Assembly: GCA_016707895.1 (NCBI GenBank)
Contig: JADJGV010000002.1
Coordinates: forward strand, 335,695 to 399,694
From: Myxococcales bacterium
Lineage (GTDB): Bacteria; Myxococcota_A; Polyangia; Haliangiales; Haliangiaceae
Length of the DNA: 64,000 nt
Direction: 5' to 3'
Part shown: positions 7,166 through 20,039 of the stretch, one piece after another
How positions within the stretch are numbered: position 1 is the stretch's first letter
Layout: each line of letters starts with the position of its first letter
Position numbers and translations under genes: made by a program
The notes under the pieces: generated by a model
The model's database searches: none
Told to the model about the DNA's origin: nothing
Seen by the model: the letters and a program-made list of their open reading frames with translations, nothing else

Positions 7166-8132
7166 CGCGGGCCGGCACGGGCAGGCGCAGCGCGAACTGC
7201 GCGCGGTAGCGCGACGGCGCGGTGCCGACCGCGGCCCGGAACGCGAGCCGGAACGCCTGCGCGGTCGCGTAGCCGCACGCGGCGCTGACCTCGTCGAGCG
7301 ACAGCCGCGACGACTCGAGCAGGCGGCGCGCGTGGAGCATCCGCTCGCGCTGTAGCCACTGCTTGGGCGAGGTGCCGGTGGCGCGGCCGAAGCGGCGCAG
7401 GAACGTGCGCGGGCTCTGGTGGGCCCGGGCGGCCAGCTCGTCGACGCCGAGCGGCTGGTCGAGGTGGCGGCGCGCCCAGTCGAGCAGCGGCGCCAGCTCC
7501 GGCTCCCCCGGTGTGGGCACCGGGCCGTCGATGAACTGCCGCTGCCCACCGGCCCGGTGCGGCGACGCGACCACCCGCCGCGCGACGACGTTGGCGATGC
7601 GCGCGCCGTGGTCGCGGGTGATCAGGTGCAGGCCGGCGTCCAGCCCAGCGGCGCTGCCGGCCGACGTCAGGATCGGGCCGTCGTCGACGTAGAGCGCGTC
7701 GGGCGCGAGCGTGACCCGCGGGAACCGCGCCGCGAACTCGTCGACGTACAGCCAGTGCGTCGTCGCCCGACGGCCGTCGAGCAGGCCGCACGCCGCCAGC
7801 AAGAACGCGCCCGAGCAGATCGAGAAGAACCGCGCGCCTCGGGCGGCGGCGCGGCGCAGCGCCTGGGCCAGCCGCGGGGCCGGCGTCTCGTGGCGCCGCC
7901 AGCCCGGCAGGACGATCAGGTCGGCGCGATCGATGGCCGCCAGCCCGGCGCCCCGCACCACGACGCCGCCGAGCCCCCGCGCCGGCCGGGGCGCGTCGGC
8001 GTTGACGATCGTCGTCCGGTACCACGGCACGCCGAGGTCGGGGCGCGGCAACACGAACAGCTCGACCGCGATGCCGTACTCGAACGTGCACAGCTGGTCG
8101 TAGGCGAGGACGGCGACCCGGGGCGCGGCCAT
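7116..8132 (-). CDS. AraC-family transcriptional regulator with N-terminal DJ-1/PfpI (class I glutamine amidotransferase-like) domain
   Basis: N-terminal DJ-1/PfpI-like region including FFSICSGAFLLAACGLLDG. C-terminal AraC-type HTH (…SPRTFLRRFGRATGTSPKQWLQRERMLHARRLL…AQAFRLAFR…). FtrA-like architecture. The 3' end overlaps the upstream gene by ~50 nt. Confidence 0.8.
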   Translation of the reverse strand: MAAPRVAVLAYDQLCTFEYGIAVELFVLPRPDLGVPWYRTTIVNADAPRPARGLGGVVVRGAGLAAIDRADLIVLPGWRRHETPAPRLAQALRRAAARGARFFSICSGAFLLAACGLLDGRRATTHWLYVDEFAARFPRVTLAPDALYVDDGPILTSAGSAAGLDAGLHLITRDHGARIANVVARRVVASPHRAGGQRQFIDGPVPTPGEPELAPLLDWARRHLDQPLGVDELAARAHQSPRTFLRRFGRATGTSPKQWLQRERMLHARRLLESSRLSLDEVSAACGYATAQAFRLAFRAAVGTAPSRYRAQFALRLPVPARVSRRSGRSASAAGRGA

Positions 8133-8167
8133 GCGGCGATGCTAGCGCGCCCGGCGGCGGCGCACGG

Positions 8168-8211
8168 GCCGTGGCGAGAAGTTAGCGAACAATGTCGTAG
8201 CCGCCACGGCC
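8168..8211. promoter_or_regulatory. inverted repeat (10-bp arms GGCCGTGGCG/CGCCACGGCC) between the divergent AraC-family regulator and GST genes
   Basis: Seen directly in the intergenic region. Position is consistent with an operator for the divergent regulator. Confidence 0.3.
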
Positions 8212-8242
8212 GGTGTGGCGGCCGCGGCGCTACGGTGACGCC

Positions 8243-8932
8243 ATGCCCAACCTCCGCCTGTACGTCGGCAACCGCAACTACTCGAGCTGGTCGCTGCGCC
8301 CGTGGCTGTGCCTCACCTGGAGCGGCCTGGCCTTCGACACCGTCGACGTCGACCTCGATCAGCCCGGCTACGGCCACGGCCAGATCGCCGACGTGCTGGC
8401 GGTGTCGCCGACCGGCCGCATCCCGGCGCTCCACGTCGATGACCTGGTGATCTGGGACAGCCTGGCGATCGCCGAGTGGGCCGCCGAGGCGGCGCCGGCC
8501 GCCGGGCTGTGGCCGACCGACCCGGGGGCCCGGGCGATCGCGCGCGCGGTGACCGCCGAGATGCACGCCGGCTTCGCGCCGGTGCGCCGCGACCTGCCGA
8601 TGAACCTGCGCCGCCGGGCCCGCGCCACCGATCTGCCGCCCGAGACCCGCGCCGACATCGCGCGGATCGACGCGCTGTGGTGCGACGCGCGCGCGCGCTT
8701 CGGCGGCGCCGGGCCGTACCTGTTCGGCGCGCGCACCATCGCCGACGCGTTCTACGCCCCGGTCGCCACCCGCTTCCGCACCTACGCGATCGAGCTGTCG
8801 CCCAGCGCCGCCGCGTACCGCGATGCGCTGCTCGCCGACGACGGCGTCCGCGCGTGGGAGACCTCGGCCGCGGCCCAGCCGGCCACGCCGTTCAGCCACT
8901 CCGACGTCGACACCCGCCACCCCGACGCGTAG
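8243..8932 (+). CDS. glutathione S-transferase
   Basis: GST N-terminal thioredoxin-like fold (MPNLRLYVGNRNYSSWSLRPWL…) and C-terminal helical domain. Internal ATG of ORF 8213..8932. Confidence 0.75.
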   Translation: MPNLRLYVGNRNYSSWSLRPWLCLTWSGLAFDTVDVDLDQPGYGHGQIADVLAVSPTGRIPALHVDDLVIWDSLAIAEWAAEAAPAAGLWPTDPGARAIARAVTAEMHAGFAPVRRDLPMNLRRRARATDLPPETRADIARIDALWCDARARFGGAGPYLFGARTIADAFYAPVATRFRTYAIELSPSAAAYRDALLADDGVRAWETSAAAQPATPFSHSDVDTRHPDA

Positions 8933-8942
8933 CCCGCGCGCG

Positions 8943-9590
8943 CTACTTCGCGACGTAGCTGGTCTCGTTGGTCGTCGCGCCGGCGTCGAACCAGTTGCCC
9001 GAGGCGATGCCGCCGTCGGCGCCGAAGCACAGCTCCCAGCCGGCCTCGTCGCCCATCGCGAACGCGTAGCCGACGCACCAGCCGCCGTCCTTGGCCTTGG
9101 CCGAGACCATCTCGAGGCCGTCGCCGTTGTCCATGTCGCCGCTCTCCTGCTGGCGCTCGGCCGGGGTCGCGGCGATCAGCATCAGCTTGGGATCGAGCGG
9201 CGCGGCGTGGACCTCGTCCATCGACTTGCTGCCGTCGAAGTGCCACAGCCCGTCGGCGGTGGCGACCCAGTAGCCGGCCGGGGCGTAGCCGTCGCCCGCG
9301 ACGCGATCGCCGTCGGCGGTGCACTCGATCTTCGCCATCTGCTTGCCGTCCATCGCGTGGGCCATCGCGACCGTGCAGGTCATCGTGCCGGCCGGGCCGC
9401 TGGTCGGCGGGCCGATGTCGGGCGGCGGCTGGCTCTTGAAGGTCAGCGCGAAGGTCCAGGTCTTGCCCTGCTCGAACAGCGCCGCGTAGGGCGGGCCGCT
9501 GGCGGCGCCGCCGGTGTTGCCCGGCGTGGTCGTGGCGGCCTTGCCGCCGCACGCGGCGACGATCAGCAGGAGAGGCGCGAGGTGCTTCAT
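8943..9590 (-). CDS. hypothetical lipoprotein
   Basis: Lipobox MKHLAPLLLIVAACGG. Globular-looking sequence with no family assigned. Confidence 0.55.
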   Translation of the reverse strand: MKHLAPLLLIVAACGGKAATTTPGNTGGAASGPPYAALFEQGKTWTFALTFKSQPPPDIGPPTSGPAGTMTCTVAMAHAMDGKQMAKIECTADGDRVAGDGYAPAGYWVATADGLWHFDGSKSMDEVHAAPLDPKLMLIAATPAERQQESGDMDNGDGLEMVSAKAKDGGWCVGYAFAMGDEAGWELCFGADGGIASGNWFDAGATTNETSYVAK

Positions 9591-9737
9591 CCCGCGGTTC
9601 TATCACCGCCGCCGCCGGCGCGCGCGGCTCGGGGAAAGTCGGAGTAAGCAGCGCGCCGACCGTCGACGCCGGCCCGCCGACCGCCGCTCCGCACGCCGCG
9701 GTGGATCTGCGCCCGCCCGCGGGGCTAGCGTCTGGCC

Positions 9738-10898
9738 ATGACGCCGCGCGCCCCGTCGATCGTCACCAAGCTCGCCGTCTCGCTCGCGCTGGCCGCGTGC
9801 GGGGGCGACGACGCCACCACCGACCCGCCGGTCCAGGACATCGCCGGCTGCGATGGCGCGACGCTCCTGTCGAAGCCCAGCGACCCCGCGGCCCGCGGCC
9901 CGTGGCCGGTCGGCGCCCGTACCGTCACCGTCGGCCGGCTGGGCAAGGTCGAGGTCTGGTACCCGGCGGTGCGCGGCAGCGAGACCGGCAAGACGACCGC
10001 GCGCTACGACATCCGCGAGGCGCTCAACGCCTCGCAGCGCGCCACGATCAGCGACGCCGACAACCCGTGGCAGGACTGCGACTGCTACCGCGACCTGCCG
10101 CTCGACGACGCCCACGGCCCGTACCCGGCGGTGGTGTTCGTCCACGGCACGGCCGCGTTCCGCCACCAGTCGCTGCCGATCGTCACCCACTGGGCCAGCC
10201 GCGGCTTCGTCGTGATCGCCGCCGATCACCCGGGCCTCGTGCTCGGCGACGTCCTGACGATGCTGTGCCCCGACACGCCGACCGGCAGCCGCGACCTGGC
10301 CGGCGACATCGCCGCCGAGATCGCCGCGCTGGCCGCGCCCGCCGGCGAGCTGGCGTTCCTGGCCGGCCACGTCGACGCCACCCGGGTCGCCGTCGCCGGT
10401 CACTCGGCCGGCGCGTCGGCCGCCGCCGGCGCCACCGCGCTCCCCGGCGTCCGCGTCGTCATCGGCATGGCCGGCAACCAGGCCGCCGCCGACTCGTCGA
10501 CGCTCGAGCGGGTGCTGTTCATGGCCGGCGACATGGACTCGATCGTCCAGCCCAGCGCGGTCAAGAACGCGTGGTCGATGTCGGCCACGCCGCGCCACTA
10601 CTTCAGCATCGTCGGTGGCGCGCACCTCGCGTTCTCGGACCTGTGCGAGACCAAGAACGCGGCCGGCAAGAACCTCCTGCAGATCGCCAACGACTACAAC
10701 CTGTGCGGCGCCGCCGCCGCGGGCCTCCTGTTCCAGTGCGACCCGGCCTTCATCCCCGGCCCCGAGGCCTGGGACATCATCGACTTCGCCACCACCACGG
10801 TGCTCGAGTCGACGCTGCAGTGCGCCACCGGTGGTCCGACGATCGATCAGGTCGACGACACCTACCCCAAGGCGCACAACTACGAGGAGGCCCTATAG
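9738..10898 (+). CDS. alpha/beta-hydrolase lipoprotein (PAF-acetylhydrolase/dienelactone-hydrolase-like)
   Basis: Lipobox LALAAC. Nucleophile elbow GHSAG. FVHG oxyanion-hole region. Confidence 0.75.
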   Translation: MTPRAPSIVTKLAVSLALAACGGDDATTDPPVQDIAGCDGATLLSKPSDPAARGPWPVGARTVTVGRLGKVEVWYPAVRGSETGKTTARYDIREALNASQRATISDADNPWQDCDCYRDLPLDDAHGPYPAVVFVHGTAAFRHQSLPIVTHWASRGFVVIAADHPGLVLGDVLTMLCPDTPTGSRDLAGDIAAEIAALAAPAGELAFLAGHVDATRVAVAGHSAGASAAAGATALPGVRVVIGMAGNQAAADSSTLERVLFMAGDMDSIVQPSAVKNAWSMSATPRHYFSIVGGAHLAFSDLCETKNAAGKNLLQIANDYNLCGAAAAGLLFQCDPAFIPGPEAWDIIDFATTTVLESTLQCATGGPTIDQVDDTYPKAHNYEEAL

Positions 10899-10978
10899 CC
10901 GGCCCAGCGCGCCCACCGCCGACGGGCGATCCTTGCCATTAGCCTGCTAGGCAAGGGCACGGCCCTAGACGTGGTTCT

Positions 10979-11512
10979 CTACCAATTGCAGGACTCACCC
11001 TGGGGCGCATTGCAGAGGTTGATTCCACACTGCTCCCATGTCTTGTAGTTTGCCGTCCCGTCGATGTTGGATGGCGTGGTTGCGTGTCCCGCGTGACCAG
11101 GGCCCCCCATCGCCCAATACGTGACCGGCGTGGCGCACGTCGATGTCGCTACGACAGGCTCCCAGATGCCGATTGTCACAGGTGAGCAGACCCCCAAGTA
11201 GCAGAATTCGCCGGCGTGCCACACCCTTGGATTGCAGTACTCGAAGTAGGGTGCACAAGCAAACTGCTTTTCGGCCACCCCGGGTGCTTGGTCGGCCTTC
11301 GTTGTCGGCGAAACAAAGTACCTGCCTTCCTCATTGATTCGCAGCGATCGCCCTTCGAGATCTGCGACGTCGAAAGAAATCACACTGGGGTTGATCTCCT
11401 CAAACGAACTTGGCGTTGGCCCCGATATCGGATCCGCGCAGCCGGACCAGAATGCGCCTGCGATGGACGCCATCGCGAATGGGACAAGAATGCTCCCAAG
11501 AGAATTCGCCAT
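10979..11512 (-). CDS. Cys-rich secreted protein encoded on a low-GC island
   Basis: GGAGG lies 8 nt upstream of the ATG. Signal peptide MANSLGSILVPFAMASIAGAFWSGCADP. About 12 Cys in the mature part. Local GC is ~55% against ~72% for the window. Confidence 0.5.
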   Translation of the reverse strand: MANSLGSILVPFAMASIAGAFWSGCADPISGPTPSSFEEINPSVISFDVADLEGRSLRINEEGRYFVSPTTKADQAPGVAEKQFACAPYFEYCNPRVWHAGEFCYLGVCSPVTIGIWEPVVATSTCATPVTYWAMGGPGHAGHATTPSNIDGTANYKTWEQCGINLCNAPQGESCNW

Positions 11513-11782
11513 TTTACACGCCTCCGTGATGTGGTGCCTTGCTTCCACGAACCCATCCTAGAGCCACGAGCTCCACGAATGCAACAATAGCCCGGTCCTT
11601 TTGTGAAGCATTTCGCTATGCCATTGAAATAGTTGCCTCATCGACGCCCGAAAAACACGTTTCAGAATCTGGGCAAGGCAACTGGTTTGGGCCAACCACT
11701 GTGGGACGATGGGCCAATAGAAAGCGGAGCCTCATCGGGTTCCAAGCCGTCGACTGGTGTTAGGCTCGCTGCCGTGGGCTAC

Positions 11783-12196
11783 ATGGTCCGGTACTACGCC
11801 GCACAGCCGATCACGTCCAAGGCCCTGCACCAGGCCCTGCAGGCGGTCGATCCAGCGCTGAAGATCGACCTCGGTGAGCTGCTGCACGGCGACCAGTCCC
11901 TGGGACAGGTCGAGGTGAACCAGGCCAGCGGCGACCTGTTCGAGGACGACCTGCGCAACACGATCCGCGTCGTCGAGTCGACCGGCCACGGCGCCGCGGT
12001 CGTGCCCCGCCTGCGCGCCAGCCGCGCGGTCGTCGTCGCCGATCTCGACTGGGGCACCCGCGGCCCCGACGCCACGCTCGCGCTGGTCGCGCCGCTGTGG
12101 AACGTGCTGCGCCAGCTGTCGCCCGGGCTCGCCCAGTGGGACGGCCACGGCATGTACGACGGCGACCAGTGCGTCGTCGATCTGCGCGGCCGCTGA
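11783..12196 (+). CDS. hypothetical protein
   Basis: Internal ATG (MVRYYAAQPITSK…) of ORF 11633..12196. Codon usage returns to high GC. No motif recognised. Confidence 0.35.
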   Translation: MVRYYAAQPITSKALHQALQAVDPALKIDLGELLHGDQSLGQVEVNQASGDLFEDDLRNTIRVVESTGHGAAVVPRLRASRAVVVADLDWGTRGPDATLALVAPLWNVLRQLSPGLAQWDGHGMYDGDQCVVDLRGR

Positions 12197-12246
12197 TCAG
12201 GGCCGCTGATCCGCGCGGCTGATCAGTTTCGATCAATGGCTGATCA
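12191..12246. promoter_or_regulatory. array of 4-5 (GC)TGATCA/TGATCC motifs spaced ~13 bp apart
   Basis: GCTGATCAGGGCCGCTGATCCGCGCGGCTGATCAGTTTCGATCAATGGCTGATCAC lies upstream of the Cys-rich lipoprotein gene at 12370. TGATCA is palindromic and contains GATC. Confidence 0.3.
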
Positions 12247-12369
12247 CGGCGGGCGGAATCGCACGCGCAGCGCGGTCGCGTCTCGCGCGAGCGAGTGTCA
12301 GCGCGTGGGCCAGCGAGCGATCTCGAGATCGCCGCGCGGCCATGCACAGTGCCGCGCCAGGAGGTACCT

Positions 12370-12855
12370 ATGCACCTGCATACGATCTTGTCTGCGTTCA
12401 TTCTCTCGGTCGGCCTCGCGGCCTGTGGCGGAAGCGGCAGCGGTGACGACGTCGTCTCTGTCGACGCGCGGACCACCGATGGCGGCGGCGCGGCGGATGC
12501 GCCCGGTGGCGGTATCGACGCCCCTGGCGGCGGCAGCAACGCCCTCGGCATGCTCTGTAGCCCAACCGTGGCGTGCCCACTGGGCAACATGTGCACCGGC
12601 GTCACGGGAGTCGGAAGCCAGACGATGGGGTGGTGCACGCCGATGTGCTCGGGGCAGATGAGCACCGAATGCGCGACCGGCTACACAGGGCCCGCCGGCG
12701 GTCGGCCGGTGTGCATCCTCTCGCAGCCGGGCAGCACAATGGCGACTGGGTGCGCGATCATCTGCACCGCGCCCGAGCAGTGCCCGATGAACCTGGCGTG
12801 CATCCCCGTTCCTAATCAGCAAACGCCGTTCAGCATCTGCGCGCCCCCGGCCTGA
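12370..12855 (+). CDS. Cys-rich lipoprotein
   Basis: AGGAGG lies 6 nt upstream of the ATG. Lipobox ILSVGLAAC. A Gly/Asp-rich linker is followed by a Cys-rich domain (12 Cys). Confidence 0.6.
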   Translation: MHLHTILSAFILSVGLAACGGSGSGDDVVSVDARTTDGGGAADAPGGGIDAPGGGSNALGMLCSPTVACPLGNMCTGVTGVGSQTMGWCTPMCSGQMSTECATGYTGPAGGRPVCILSQPGSTMATGCAIICTAPEQCPMNLACIPVPNQQTPFSICAPPA

Positions 12856-12877
12856 TCGGTCGGAGCGGTCGCCCGAA

Positions 12878-13110
12878 TGCCCGAGTCGCAACCCCGAATC
12901 GAATGCCGGCCCCAGCCGGCCCCAGCCGGCCCCAAGAGCCGAGTCGCAGCCGAGTCGCAACCCAAGAGCCGAGTCGCAACCCATCGGATCGCGCGTGCCC
13001 AAGAGCCGAGTCGCCCAGCCGAGTCGCCCAAGAGCCGAGTCGCAACCCATCGGATCGCGCGTGCGGCCCCAAGAGCCGAGTCGCAACCCATCGGATCGCG
13101 CGTGCGGGGT
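12878..13110. repeat. complex tandem direct-repeat array (12-nt core AGCCGAGTCGCA ≥8 copies; ~38-nt higher-order unit CCAAGAGCCGAGTCGCAACCCATCGGATCGCGCGTGC ×3)
   Basis: Read directly from the sequence. Units abut with no unique spacers, so this is not a CRISPR array. It lies ~140 bp beyond the 3' end of the HUH transposase gene. Confidence 0.7.
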
Positions 13111-13250
13111 GAATCGCGTCGCGGAGTCACCTCCGTCGCCCGCCGAAAGCGCGGCCGCCCGGTCGACCAGGGGTGATGGCCTGGTGGGCCGGGCAGCGAG
13201 CGAAGAGGGCGGGTGGGTAGCGCGTCAGCGCAGGGCGAGCGGACGGACCG

Positions 13251-14246
13251 TCACGCGAGGGCGAGGTCGGCGTCGTCGAGGCCTCGGAGCCAGGTGGCGG
13301 CGAGGTCGGTGGGGGCGGGGATGTACCAGCGCGGGCGGACGAGCGCGCCGGGCGGGTAGCTGGCGGTGATCGCCGCGGCGATCTCGTCGGTGTCGGCGGA
13401 GGCGAGCTTGCGCAGACGCTCGGAGGCGCGCTTGTAGTGGTCGCGGAAGGTGGCGTAGGCGGCGAGGAAGCGCGCGCGGACGCGGACGCAGAAGGCGTGG
13501 CACGCCGGTGCAGGCGACGGCTCGAGCTTGTTGAGGGGCGTCGCATCGGGATCCTCGGCGATCACGCGACCCGCGCCGAGGACGGCGGCGCCGGCATGCT
13601 CGGCCTCGATCTCGGCGACGAGGGCGGCGTGCTTGGCGCGGAGCGCGGCCGGAGTGAGGTCGGCCCAGATGGGCAGCGGGGTGAGCGTGATGGCGACGTC
13701 GTGCGCGAGCTCGGCGTCGGAGTGCGGCTCCGGGCGGCGGGCGTTGCGGCGGCGCGCGTCGAGCGAGCGGTAGACGGCGGGGATGGTCATGTCGCCGAGC
13801 AGCGCGGGCGTCGAGCAGGCGCCGGGCCAGTCGCGCGGCGAGGCGACGAGGTTGGACGTGGGGCCCTGGGCGAGGATGTAGCGGAGGCGATCGATCTGGG
13901 CGTCACCATCGAGGACGGCGATGACGCTGCCGCGGCGGCTCCAGAAGACGCCTTCGCGATCGCGGAGGTCGTTGAGTTGACGGGCGATGTTGCCGTGAAC
14001 GTAGTCGATGAAGAGCGGCAGCTGATCGGGATCGTGGTCGGCCGAGCAGAGGTAGTGGAGGTGGTTGGATTGGGCGTCGAAGGCGTAGAGGCGGACCGCG
14101 GTGTAGAGCGCGAGTGCCTTGCCGAAGACGCCGTCGATGATCGCGCGGCACGCGGGATCGGGGCGCAGCCAGAAGTGGCCGCCCAGCGTCCGGATCGTCA
14201 CCTCGTAGAGCAACTGCGCCACGTAGAACCGCTGTCGATGCGCCAT
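13251..14246 (-). CDS. IS200/IS605-family Y1 HUH transposase (COG1943, RayT-like), with a long C-terminal extension
   Basis: HuH motif SNHLHYL. Catalytic Tyr helix RLRYILAQGPTSNLVASPRDWP matching the RayT/IS200 pattern Y..NP..LV..P.DWP. Start is an internal ATG (MAHRQRFYVAQ…). The upstream part of ORF 13251..14504 lies in a low-GC non-coding region. Confidence 0.7.
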   Translation of the reverse strand: MAHRQRFYVAQLLYEVTIRTLGGHFWLRPDPACRAIIDGVFGKALALYTAVRLYAFDAQSNHLHYLCSADHDPDQLPLFIDYVHGNIARQLNDLRDREGVFWSRRGSVIAVLDGDAQIDRLRYILAQGPTSNLVASPRDWPGACSTPALLGDMTIPAVYRSLDARRRNARRPEPHSDAELAHDVAITLTPLPIWADLTPAALRAKHAALVAEIEAEHAGAAVLGAGRVIAEDPDATPLNKLEPSPAPACHAFCVRVRARFLAAYATFRDHYKRASERLRKLASADTDEIAAAITASYPPGALVRPRWYIPAPTDLAATWLRGLDDADLALA

Positions 14247-14362
14247 GTGCCACCCCGGTCGGCGCCCACCGCGGGCGCATGGCCGGGCTATCGACCAGGC
14301 CGCGCGGCGGTTGCGTGGTTCGCGCGGACGGTCATGAGATCGTCGCGGGCGCGCCCCATGAA

Positions 14363-14402
14363 CCCCCGATCCGGTTGGCCCCGATGCCCCGATCCGGTTG
14401 GC
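14363..14402. promoter_or_regulatory. two copies of CCCCGATCCGGTTGGC (tandem direct repeat, 6-nt gap) ~35 nt upstream of the histone-like gene
   Basis: Read directly. Lies between the divergent transposase and histone-like genes. Confidence 0.4.
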
Positions 14403-14436
14403 TGCAACCCGTTTCAGGGAGGCCGATTCCCAATGC

Positions 14437-14841
14437 ATGTTGGTCGACATGGAGGACGGAGACAGAGTAAAGGACGTGGCCGGCTCCGGCTTCGCGTACT
14501 TCATGGATGTCGTGACCGTGCTGGAGGTCCTGGAGGCCTTCGGGAAGCGAAGGCCGAAGTTGGAAGAGAAGCTCCGCCTGCTCAGCCACTACGCGGAAAA
14601 CGACGCGTACCCGGAGTGGGTGTTCGCGAAGGTGACCAAGGCCCCCAAGCGCGCCAAGCCGACCGAGCGCGCCAAGCCGACCAAGCGCGCCAAGCCTGCC
14701 AAGCGCGCCAAGCGCGCCGCCGAGCGCGAGGCCGCGAAGGCCACCAAGCCTACGAAGGCCACCAAGCCTACGAAGGCCACCAAGCCCTCCAAGCCCGCGA
14801 AGGCCACCAAGGCCAGGACCACCACGCCCCGGAAGCGCTAG
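14437..14841 (+). CDS. small DNA-binding-like protein with histone H1-like Lys/Ala/Pro-rich repetitive tail
   Basis: GGGAGG lies ~15 nt upstream of the ATG. Globular N-terminus, then KAPKRAKPTERAKPTKRAKPAKRAKRAA…ATKPTKATKPTKATKPSKPAKATKA. The antisense ORF 14332..15054 is the mirror image of these repeats. Confidence 0.55.
   Translation: MLVDMEDGDRVKDVAGSGFAYFMDVVTVLEVLEAFGKRRPKLEEKLRLLSHYAENDAYPEWVFAKVTKAPKRAKPTERAKPTKRAKPAKRAKRAAEREAAKATKPTKATKPTKATKPSKPAKATKARTTTPRKR
14643..14832 (+). repeat. in-frame coding tandem repeats (18-nt and 21-nt units) encoding the AKP/TKA tail
   Basis: GCGCCAAGCCGACC… and GCCACCAAGCCTACGAAG… units repeated in tandem within the CDS. Confidence 0.5.
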
Positions 14842-15098: not shown

Positions 15099-15422
15099 CT
15101 AGATCGGGCGCCGGCGCCAGTAGCCCGGGCGTCGCTTCGCGTGAGCCACAGCGATGACATCGATCGTGTCGGCAAGGACCACGTAGACGACGCGATACGG
15201 GAATCGCCGCACCTTGATCGAACGGATGTCCGGTGCCAGCAAGATCGGATGCGCCTGCGGGAGCCCAGCGATCAAGACGAGGGCGCCTTCGATCGCGGTG
15301 GCGAACCGCTGACCGCGGCCTTCGCGTTCGCGCTCATAGTAGGCGACGGCCTCGATGAGTTCCCGCGCCGCCGCCGGACGAAACGAGATCAGGTCTTCAG
15401 CGCGCGCTTCACGTCCGCCCAT
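15099..15422 (-). CDS. ParE/RelE-family type II toxin
   Basis: …LISFRPAAARELIEAVAYY… matches the ParE N-terminus. Size ~100 aa. Overlaps the upstream antitoxin gene. Confidence 0.7.
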   Translation of the reverse strand: MGGREARAEDLISFRPAAARELIEAVAYYEREREGRGQRFATAIEGALVLIAGLPQAHPILLAPDIRSIKVRRFPYRVVYVVLADTIDVIAVAHAKRRPGYWRRRPI

Positions 15423-19399: not shown

Positions 19400-19993
19400 C
19401 TACTTCTTCAGCACCAGCACCGTCAGGACGCCCTGCAGCTGCGGCGCGGTGGCGCTGGAGACGTTGGCGGTGGCGGCGTTGGGGTCGGGGGCGATCACCT
19501 TGACCTCGACGGTGTGGTTGCCCGGCGCCAGGTTGTACGAGCGGGCCATCGACCAGCTGGCGATCATCTGACCGACCGCGGCGGAGTTGGCGGCGACCAC
19601 GCGGCGCACGCCGCCCTGGTTCGACGCGATGCCATCGACGAAGATCGCGACGTCGACGACCGAGTAGGCGGTGCCGACGGCGGTGCACTGGATGCCGCCG
19701 TTGGTGCTGACGTGGACCGCGGCGTTGTCGGGCACGGTGATCACCTGCTGCAGGCCGGGGATCAGCACGTAGCTGGTGAACGCCGAGGTCACCGCGAGCT
19801 GGCCGGTGCCGTAGATCTCGTAGAGGTTCTGGCCGGTGGTGCCGGCGGGGCCCGCTGGCCCGGTGTTGCCGGTCTGGCCGGTCTGGCCGGTCTGGCCCGG
19901 CGGCCCTTCGGGGCCGGGCTCGCCGTCGAGGCCCGCCGGCCCCGAGCAAGCGACCGCGAGCAGGAGCGTACCGATCGACCAGAGCGTGCGCAT
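19400..19993 (-). CDS. lipoprotein with collagen-like G-X-Y triplet repeats
   Basis: Internal ATG gives MRTLWSIGTLLLAVACSG, followed by GEPGPEGPPGQTGQTGQTGNTGPAGPAGTTGQ and a beta-rich domain. The longer upstream extension looks non-coding. Confidence 0.5.
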   Translation of the reverse strand: MRTLWSIGTLLLAVACSGPAGLDGEPGPEGPPGQTGQTGQTGNTGPAGPAGTTGQNLYEIYGTGQLAVTSAFTSYVLIPGLQQVITVPDNAAVHVSTNGGIQCTAVGTAYSVVDVAIFVDGIASNQGGVRRVVAANSAAVGQMIASWSMARSYNLAPGNHTVEVKVIAPDPNAATANVSSATAPQLQGVLTVLVLKK

Positions 19994-20039
19994 CGCGCCG
20001 ACGCTATCAGACGCCTCAGCGGCTGTGTCAGCATGCGGC

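Follow-up and report, generated by a model that had tools for sequence, protein, structure and literature searches.

We examined a 64-kb stretch of the genome of an uncultured, Kofleriaceae-like member of the Myxococcales (64,000 nucleotides of contig JADJGV010000002.1; hereafter, the window) in which a single short gene of deviant composition lies between a gene for an alpha/beta-hydrolase lipoprotein, here called the esterase, and a conserved gene of 137 or 140 codons, here called p137. This orphan gene encodes a predicted prolipoprotein of 177 amino acids. Together with most of its upstream spacer, it makes up an insertion of about 825 bp that is absent from the same site in close relatives. 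The features of the locus are collected in Table 1.

A low-GC gene between the esterase gene and p137

A preliminary description of this DNA, made from its letters alone, had reported a sharp drop in GC content at ~10.95–11.78 kb, and sliding-window and codon analyses bear this out. GC content is 73.4% for the window as a whole and 57.7% for positions 10950–11790, the minimum among all 841-bp stretches of the 64 kb (the runner-up has 65.6%). With edges set from relatives (10932–11756), the segment has 57.2% GC, whereas all other 825-bp windows of the stretch have 73.6 ± 3.0% (z = −5.4). Within the orphan gene, GC by codon position is 0.52, 0.55 and 0.69; GC at third positions (GC3) is thus 0.685, compared with 0.83–0.99 in neighbouring genes and 0.88–0.99 in the remaining high-GC3 open reading frames (ORFs) of the window, and GC at first positions (GC1) is 0.52 compared with 0.63–0.78 in neighbours. 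The orthologue in a related locus, L023, has a GC3 of 0.71, which is 4.0 s.d. under the 21 pipeline-called genes (z = −4.0). The 270-bp AT-rich spacer of the earlier account is likewise present (11513–11782), at 55% GC compared with 62–80% in other intergenic regions of the same genome.

Table 1. Positions of the orphan gene, the insertion and the flanking features in the window
Feature	Position	Strand	Basis and remarks
Left flank, alpha/beta-hydrolase (PAF-AH/PETase-like) lipoprotein gene (esterase)	9738..10898	+	Pfam PF03403, PF07224, PF12740; conserved; normal composition, GC3 0.98
Hairpin CCTTGCC-N12-GGCAAGG at left edge of insert	10931..10956		Between the convergent stop codons of esterase and orphan gene
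Inserted low-GC segment, 825 bp	10932..11756		Absent from the L007 and L003 empty sites; raised divergence from L023; right edge possibly to 11773
Orphan gene, predicted 177-residue prolipoprotein	10979..11512	−	ORF and translation; orthologues P0001, P0002/P0009, P0003
Predicted signal peptide (residues 1–24) and lipobox Cys25, ...ASIAGAFWSG/C	11438..11512	−	PROSITE-style pattern
AT-rich divergent spacer (54% GC), orphan gene to p137	11513..11773		All but the last ~17 bp in the insert
GGAGG ribosome-binding site, 8 nucleotides 5' of ATG	11521..11525	−	Upstream sequence CACGGAGGCGTGTAAA-ATG
Right flank, conserved 137/140-residue gene p137	11774..12196	+	dN/dS 0.04; start probably GTG 11774

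Empty sites and the boundaries of the insertion

Anchored on p137, a search of the GTDB genomes recovered six loci from Kofleriaceae or Myxococcales metagenome-assembled genomes (MAGs). In one of these, L007, the genes flanking the site are 92–98% identical to those of the window at the nucleotide level (esterase, 96.6% and p137, 99% identical at the amino acid level; across L007 and L023 the esterase is 95–97% identical), and the orphan gene is absent: the blastn match to the window ends at 10931 and restarts at 11771. The empty site of L007 reads GACGGACGATC-GTGTATCGTCCGGCG-GTGGGCTAC and folds as a nested hairpin. That of L003, a more distant outgroup, reads GGCGGATC-GTGTATCGTGCCGAC-GTGGGCTAT. 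The two sites are homologous, with the common sequence GATC-GTGTATCGT...GTGGGCTA, and in both genomes the esterase gene and p137 are ~35–50 bp apart. In the window and L023, where the site is occupied, the sequence is ...CGATC-[insert]-GTGTTA.G...-GTGGGCTAC, with the break between GATC and GTGT. The insert starts 33 nucleotides past the esterase stop codon and ends ~17 nucleotides before the GTG of p137, which is the probable start of that gene because L003 has CTG where the window has ATG 11783.

Because L007 and the outgroup L003 keep the sequence and the hairpin that the occupied sites interrupt, the comparison indicates that the insertion is the derived state, that it lies at the hairpin apex and that its junctions are common to both carriers. 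The discrete, compositionally deviant island of the preliminary description is therefore a single-gene insertion, occupied in the window, L001 and L023, empty in L007 and L003, and so not clade-wide. The sequence of L001 beyond p137 is unrelated to the window and has 61–66% GC. The further hairpin at the left edge of the insert (Table 1) has a fold energy indistinguishable from that of shuffled sequences and is given as a structural note only.

The insert holds one ORF. A small partner ORF in the spacer was considered and dropped, as none is common to the window and L023 spacers. An integron cassette was also considered: GTTAGGC at the right junction fits the GTTRRRY core, but the L023 allele does not, and we take the match to be chance; the opposite end has no inverse core, and the stretches examined showed no integrase gene. 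A search of positions 10700–13300 against Rfam gave no match, and a scan of the locus for sigma-70 promoters and terminators found none.

A lineage-restricted family of predicted lipoproteins

Searches for homologues were word-indexed (5.8 billion clusters), profile-based (same database) and exhaustive with HMMER (1.84 billion representatives). From 15 billion proteins they returned three clusters in total, all on Kofleriaceae-type contigs: P0001, which represents the cluster of the window protein itself and is 96% identical to it; P0002/P0009, 64% identical; and P0003, 30–33% identical (E = 2.5e-7). Pfam gave no match for the window protein, nor for all family members at E <= 10; NCBIfam and PADLOC held no match to the family, and neither did a profile search of the PDB at E <= 10. 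PHROGs yielded nothing significant, with one non-significant signal-peptide match for P0003. No relative was present in a scan of viral contigs, and a JGI metagenome scan recovered just the two known alleles. The homology search that the preliminary description had proposed thus leads to three narrow clusters and to no known family. This protein family is new to all of the libraries searched and of an ordinary kind, that of a lineage-restricted ORFan accessory gene.

The exact window protein occurs in 33 collection blocks and P0009 in 155, on contigs of up to 1.67 Mb, and in every one of these blocks the orphan gene lies between the same esterase and p137. Identity to the window reaches 99.99% in one contig, L013, and ten further contigs have an identical spacer (except for two substitutions in one of them); the window allele is thus one widespread clone, represented on more than 20 metagenome contigs. 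L013 jumps from window position 8924 to 7169 (7170–8923 versus L013 8013–8135) and omits the GST-like and DJ-1/AraC genes; the jump is either a population deletion variant or an assembly join.

The 177-residue ORF with its GGAGG ribosome-binding site stands as first described; it is on the minus strand, and an equivalent GGAGG precedes the ATG of the L002/L023 allele. Two other features of the product needed revision. Its Cys residues number nine (25, 86, 93, 104, 109, 126, 162, 167 and 175) and not ~12, and the cleavable signal peptide, although it does mark the protein for export, is of the lipoprotein type and ends in a lipobox, FWSG/C. The N-terminus, MANSLGSILVPFAMASIAGAFWSG/C, fits a PROSITE-type lipoprotein pattern ({DERK}(6)-[LIVMFWSTAG](2)-[LIVMFYSTAGCQ]-[AGS]-C, the Cys being one of residues 15–35) over residues 15–25, with Cys25 as the predicted lipidated residue. 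The mature part would start at this Cys and comprise 153 amino acids with eight further Cys. P0001, P0009 and P0003 also match the pattern; P0002 misses it by one Glu. In all family members, P0002 included, a Gly directly precedes the Cys that closes the hydrophobic N-terminal segment. The −3 position is non-canonical, with Trp or Gly in place of Leu. In lipoproteins of Myxococcus xanthus, Lys at +2 specifies the inner membrane and Ala at +7 the matrix (PMC3222651). The mature orphan protein has Ala at +2, Asp at +3 and Gly at +7; because it has neither Lys at +2 nor Ala at +7, it would sort to the outer membrane under these rules.

Residues 86–177 are conserved in the family alignment, in contrast to a variable signal peptide and N-terminal part. 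Seven of the eight mature Cys are invariant (86, 104, 109, 126, 162, 167 and 175), as are His99, His140, His143, Asp74, Glu118 and Glu160; one might speculate that this His/Asp/Glu set makes a metal or ligand site. The analysis demonstrates a lipobox and coding constraint on the gene, and by its sequence the product conforms to the definition of a lipoprotein. Lipidation, the formation of up to four disulfides and a role in the envelope or in surface interactions would follow from these features.

Several genes nearby encode proteins of the same type. The esterase, a 215-residue protein and an adjacent Cys-rich protein have lipoprotein-type ...AACGG lipoboxes. The adjacent Cys-rich lipoprotein gene (12370–12855, plus strand) has no family match and keeps its position in L003, L007 and L023; compared with L023 it is 68% identical in amino acids, with a synonymous divergence (dS) of 0.90 (0.55–0.90 overall), a ratio of nonsynonymous to synonymous divergence (dN/dS) of 0.26 and a GC3 of 0.83 (0.77–0.83). 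The lspA gene of L023 (Peptidase_A8; 19499–20011) aligns to window positions ~1416–1938 at 82% nucleotide identity, which puts ~9 kb between an LspA homologue and a row of four or more lipoprotein genes.

Age, origin and role of the insert

The window, L007 and L023 are almost equidistant (92–94% nucleotide identity), and the window is nearer to L007 only in the two genes directly flanking the site. Compared with L023, the window is 92–97% identical up to 10930, 61–77% identical over the 3' two-thirds of the orphan gene, 35–57% identical over its 5' end and the spacer, and 98% identical at 11780; the spacer itself is not alignable (39% identity). The excess divergence is thus confined to the insert. 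Nei–Gojobori estimates against L023 gave a dS of 0.25 and a dN/dS of 0.11 for the esterase, 0.27 and 0.04 for p137, and 1.40 and 0.19 for the orphan gene (dN, 0.26), the alleles of which are 65% identical between flanks of ~92% identity. Against L001, the orphan gene has a dN/dS of 0.26 and the p137 proteins are identical. Because dN/dS is 0.19–0.26, we conclude that the orphan gene is under purifying selection, and so functional, yet its divergence is about five times that of the genes on either side. Extreme GC3 constraint on those genes may account for some of the excess in dS.

The preliminary description took the shift in composition as a sign of recent horizontal acquisition. The L023-type sister lineage argues otherwise: as it has the same insertion and junction remnants and a 65%-identical allele (dS ~1.4, compared with 0.25 for the esterase), the insertion, judged from its alleles, is not recent but old relative to the carrier lineages. 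Its patchy distribution (present in the window, L001 and L023; absent from L007) requires recombination or lineage sorting among close relatives. Between the window and L001, a patch of the spacer at ~11560–11680 is 67–84% identical and free of indels within surroundings of 97–100% identity; it resembles a short tract of recombination or else hypervariable regulatory sequence. We considered and set aside a diversity-generating retroelement for this patch, which is non-coding and has substitutions of all types.

Both this slot and a second one vary among relatives. In L008, a more distant Kofleriaceae MAG, the slot between the esterase gene and p137 holds a minus-strand SRPBCC/Polyketide_cyc2 gene of 196 codons (9364–9954) with normal GC content. 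In L003–L006, the 30%-identical family member P0003 (GC3, 0.79) lies two genes off, in another variable slot. In the window, this second slot lies between the Cys-rich and a collagen-like lipoprotein gene, and L023 carries different genes there. It contains an array of direct repeats resembling repetitive extragenic palindromic (REP) sequences (25–40-nucleotide units of about CCCAAGAGCCGAGTCGCAACCCATCGGATCGCGCGTGCGG; 12860–13110), followed by a RAYT-like gene (13251–14504, minus strand) with a weak, sub-threshold match to the REP-associated tyrosine transposase NF047646 (E = 2.5e-6) and a ParE toxin gene (15099–15422, minus strand; PF05016, E = 1.4e-10). The RAYT-like gene lies beyond the insert, and the two have no REP-type sequence in common.

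How the low-GC segment arose can be read in more than one way. Were the orphan gene ancestral at the site and deleted from L007, L003 and others, its presence in two of three nearly equidistant lineages would be accounted for. Independent deletions, however, would not recreate the same specific 15-nucleotide sequence and hairpin in L007 and the outgroup L003, and in more distant Kofleriaceae the slot is either empty or filled by other genes; of the explanations weighed here, we find this the least likely. A different account holds that the low GC content evolved in situ: an accessory gene that evolves fast and finds few homologous partners would largely escape GC-biased gene conversion or GC3 selection, settle at a lower equilibrium and be inherited or exchanged within the genus. 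GC3 is reduced in every family member (0.69, 0.71 and 0.79) with no sign of amelioration despite dS > 1 between alleles; the adjacent Cys-rich lipoprotein gene, fast-evolving in a kept position, also has a lowered GC3; and no relative of the orphan gene was found outside the clade. Such an account also agrees with the finding that GC3 is higher in recombining than in non-recombining core genes in 11 of 14 bacterial groups (PMC4450053). Polarized substitutions between the window and L001 are balanced (five GC>AT and four AT>GC, with L023 as outgroup), but nine informative sites are far too few for a test of in situ origin. Against it, the shift exceeds relaxed codon usage because GC1 (0.52 compared with 0.63–0.78 in neighbours) and the non-coding spacer (54% GC) are also low, and the segment is demonstrably an insertion and so came from somewhere. 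We regard in situ evolution as possible rather than probable. A foreign low-GC donor is possible too, and the searches made found none.

We think it probable that the low-GC insert is an accessory orphan prolipoprotein gene that is old relative to its carriers and has been reshuffled within the Kofleriaceae, with a predicted role in the envelope. A segment of ~825 bp would have entered at the hairpin apex of the short gap between the esterase gene and p137, probably splitting an earlier operon, and would have brought a self-contained gene with its own upstream region. The esterase gene and p137 are probably co-transcribed in the empty-site genomes; where the insert is present, p137 would be transcribed from within it, and the spacer presumably holds the promoters of both p137 and the orphan gene. 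The product would be exported by Sec, lipidated and cut by signal peptidase II at Cys25, to give a beta-rich protein of ~153 amino acids placed in the outer membrane. Two sister lineages have the gene at one site and a third lacks it; recombination among lineages has probably reshuffled it.

Several observations weigh against this reading. The libraries searched hold no homologue with a known function. Signatures of mobility are missing: there is no tRNA gene in the window, no direct or inverted repeats bracket the insert and no recombinase lies within it. Scans with sigma-70 and sigma-54 patterns found no promoter in the spacer. The n-region of the window allele (MANSLGS, the first ~7 residues) has no Lys or Arg and so departs from the classical lipoprotein rule; basic residues are present there in P0009 (K6) and P0003 (R2 and K4), and an upstream GTG start would supply an Arg and a Lys but shift the Cys to residue 37. 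AlphaFold2 models of the full-length protein (from a four-sequence alignment) and of the C-terminal domain alone are beta-rich and of low confidence, with predicted local distance difference test (pLDDT) scores of 42.6 and 34.9, respectively; both are too poor for a fold search or a disulfide map. Finally, the near-equidistance of the window, L007 and L023 fits more than one history of gain, loss and recombination.

The product was first taken for a candidate toxin, effector or bacteriocin-like protein, disulfide-rich and released, and its gene for a recent horizontal acquisition; a small, Cys-rich, exported orphan of deviant composition and variable presence would suit this view. We nevertheless consider this very unlikely. 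The lipobox implies anchoring to a membrane and not release; the insert has no immunity, maturation or ABC-transporter gene, nor a small ORF common to the window and L023 spacers, and the gene downstream is a convergent, housekeeping-type esterase; Pfam, NCBIfam, PADLOC and the PDB offered no match and PHROGs nothing significant, so that homology to toxin, defence or phage proteins is missing; and alleles 35% diverged at one shared site do not fit recent transfer. A part in kin discrimination or antagonism, either as a toxin delivered by outer-membrane exchange in the manner of SitA or as an orphan periplasmic lipoprotein that confers immunity to, or inhibits, an envelope-targeting toxin of a competitor, would draw on the divergent alleles of a polymorphic, fast-evolving lipoprotein at one locus of a myxobacterium. 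This we hold to be quite unlikely, as the conserved, Cys-rich C-terminal domain points to a fold outside the cytoplasm and the gene, which is monocistronic, has no link to any toxin locus. A bolder form of our own reading, which we think unlikely although somewhat less so, is that the family is a previously undescribed one of hypervariable, disulfide-rich outer-membrane lipoproteins in Kofleriaceae whose ancient alleles are kept in recombination-prone slots by selection for diversity (exerted by phage, prey, competitor toxins or kin recognition), perhaps through the His-rich site.

The locus provides an exact empty-site comparison for an orphan gene insertion in an uncultured, predatory-type family of myxobacteria. 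It illustrates that a sharp dip in GC content need not imply recent transfer, since the divergence between the two alleles far exceeds that between their carrier genomes. If characterized, the orphan family would supply Myxococcota with a new fold or function among envelope proteins; the evidence so far leaves the general view unchanged.

Comparison with known systems places the accessory reading in context. As in genomic islands, composition deviates from the host (57% compared with 73.6% GC; GC3 of 0.69 compared with 0.88–0.99) and presence varies around intact empty sites, but the searches give three Kofleriaceae-type clusters only, with no identifiable donor or relatives in another lineage. 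Bacteriocin loci have a dedicated immunity, export or maturation gene adjacent; here the insert is monocistronic, and the genes flanking it are conserved chromosomal genes that are present also in genomes without the insert. SitA toxins of Myxococcus, which we set apart by their described features and by the lack of matches in general libraries, are polymorphic outer-membrane lipoproteins in which the N-terminal region is conserved and the C-terminal toxin domain (nucleases acting in the cytoplasm) varies, with sitI downstream (PMC5562445). The orphan protein shares with them the character of a polymorphic lipoprotein in Myxococcota with horizontally reshuffled alleles. It differs in that neither sitI nor sitB accompanies its gene (80 bp downstream comes the convergent esterase gene), its N-terminus is variable and its C-terminal domain conserved, the reverse of SitA, and it is much shorter, with a Cys-rich domain ill-suited to a nuclease that acts in the cytoplasm. 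Lipoproteins processed by Lgt, LspA and Lnt (PROSITE PS51257-type lipobox) are closer: the hydrophobic signal peptide and the lipobox with its invariant Cys are alike, lspA lies in the syntenic region and neighbouring genes also encode lipoproteins, whereas the −3 Trp or Gly and the n-region of the window allele are unlike. The closest match is to lineage-specific ORFan or accessory gene islets: here too a single short, low-GC, fast-evolving gene has homologues only within a narrow clade and varies in presence, in this case among relatives of 92–98% identity. Unlike these, the insert has no association with phage, integrase, tRNA or repeats, lies precisely at the apex of a hairpin between two co-oriented genes and appears to predate the split of the lineages that carry it.

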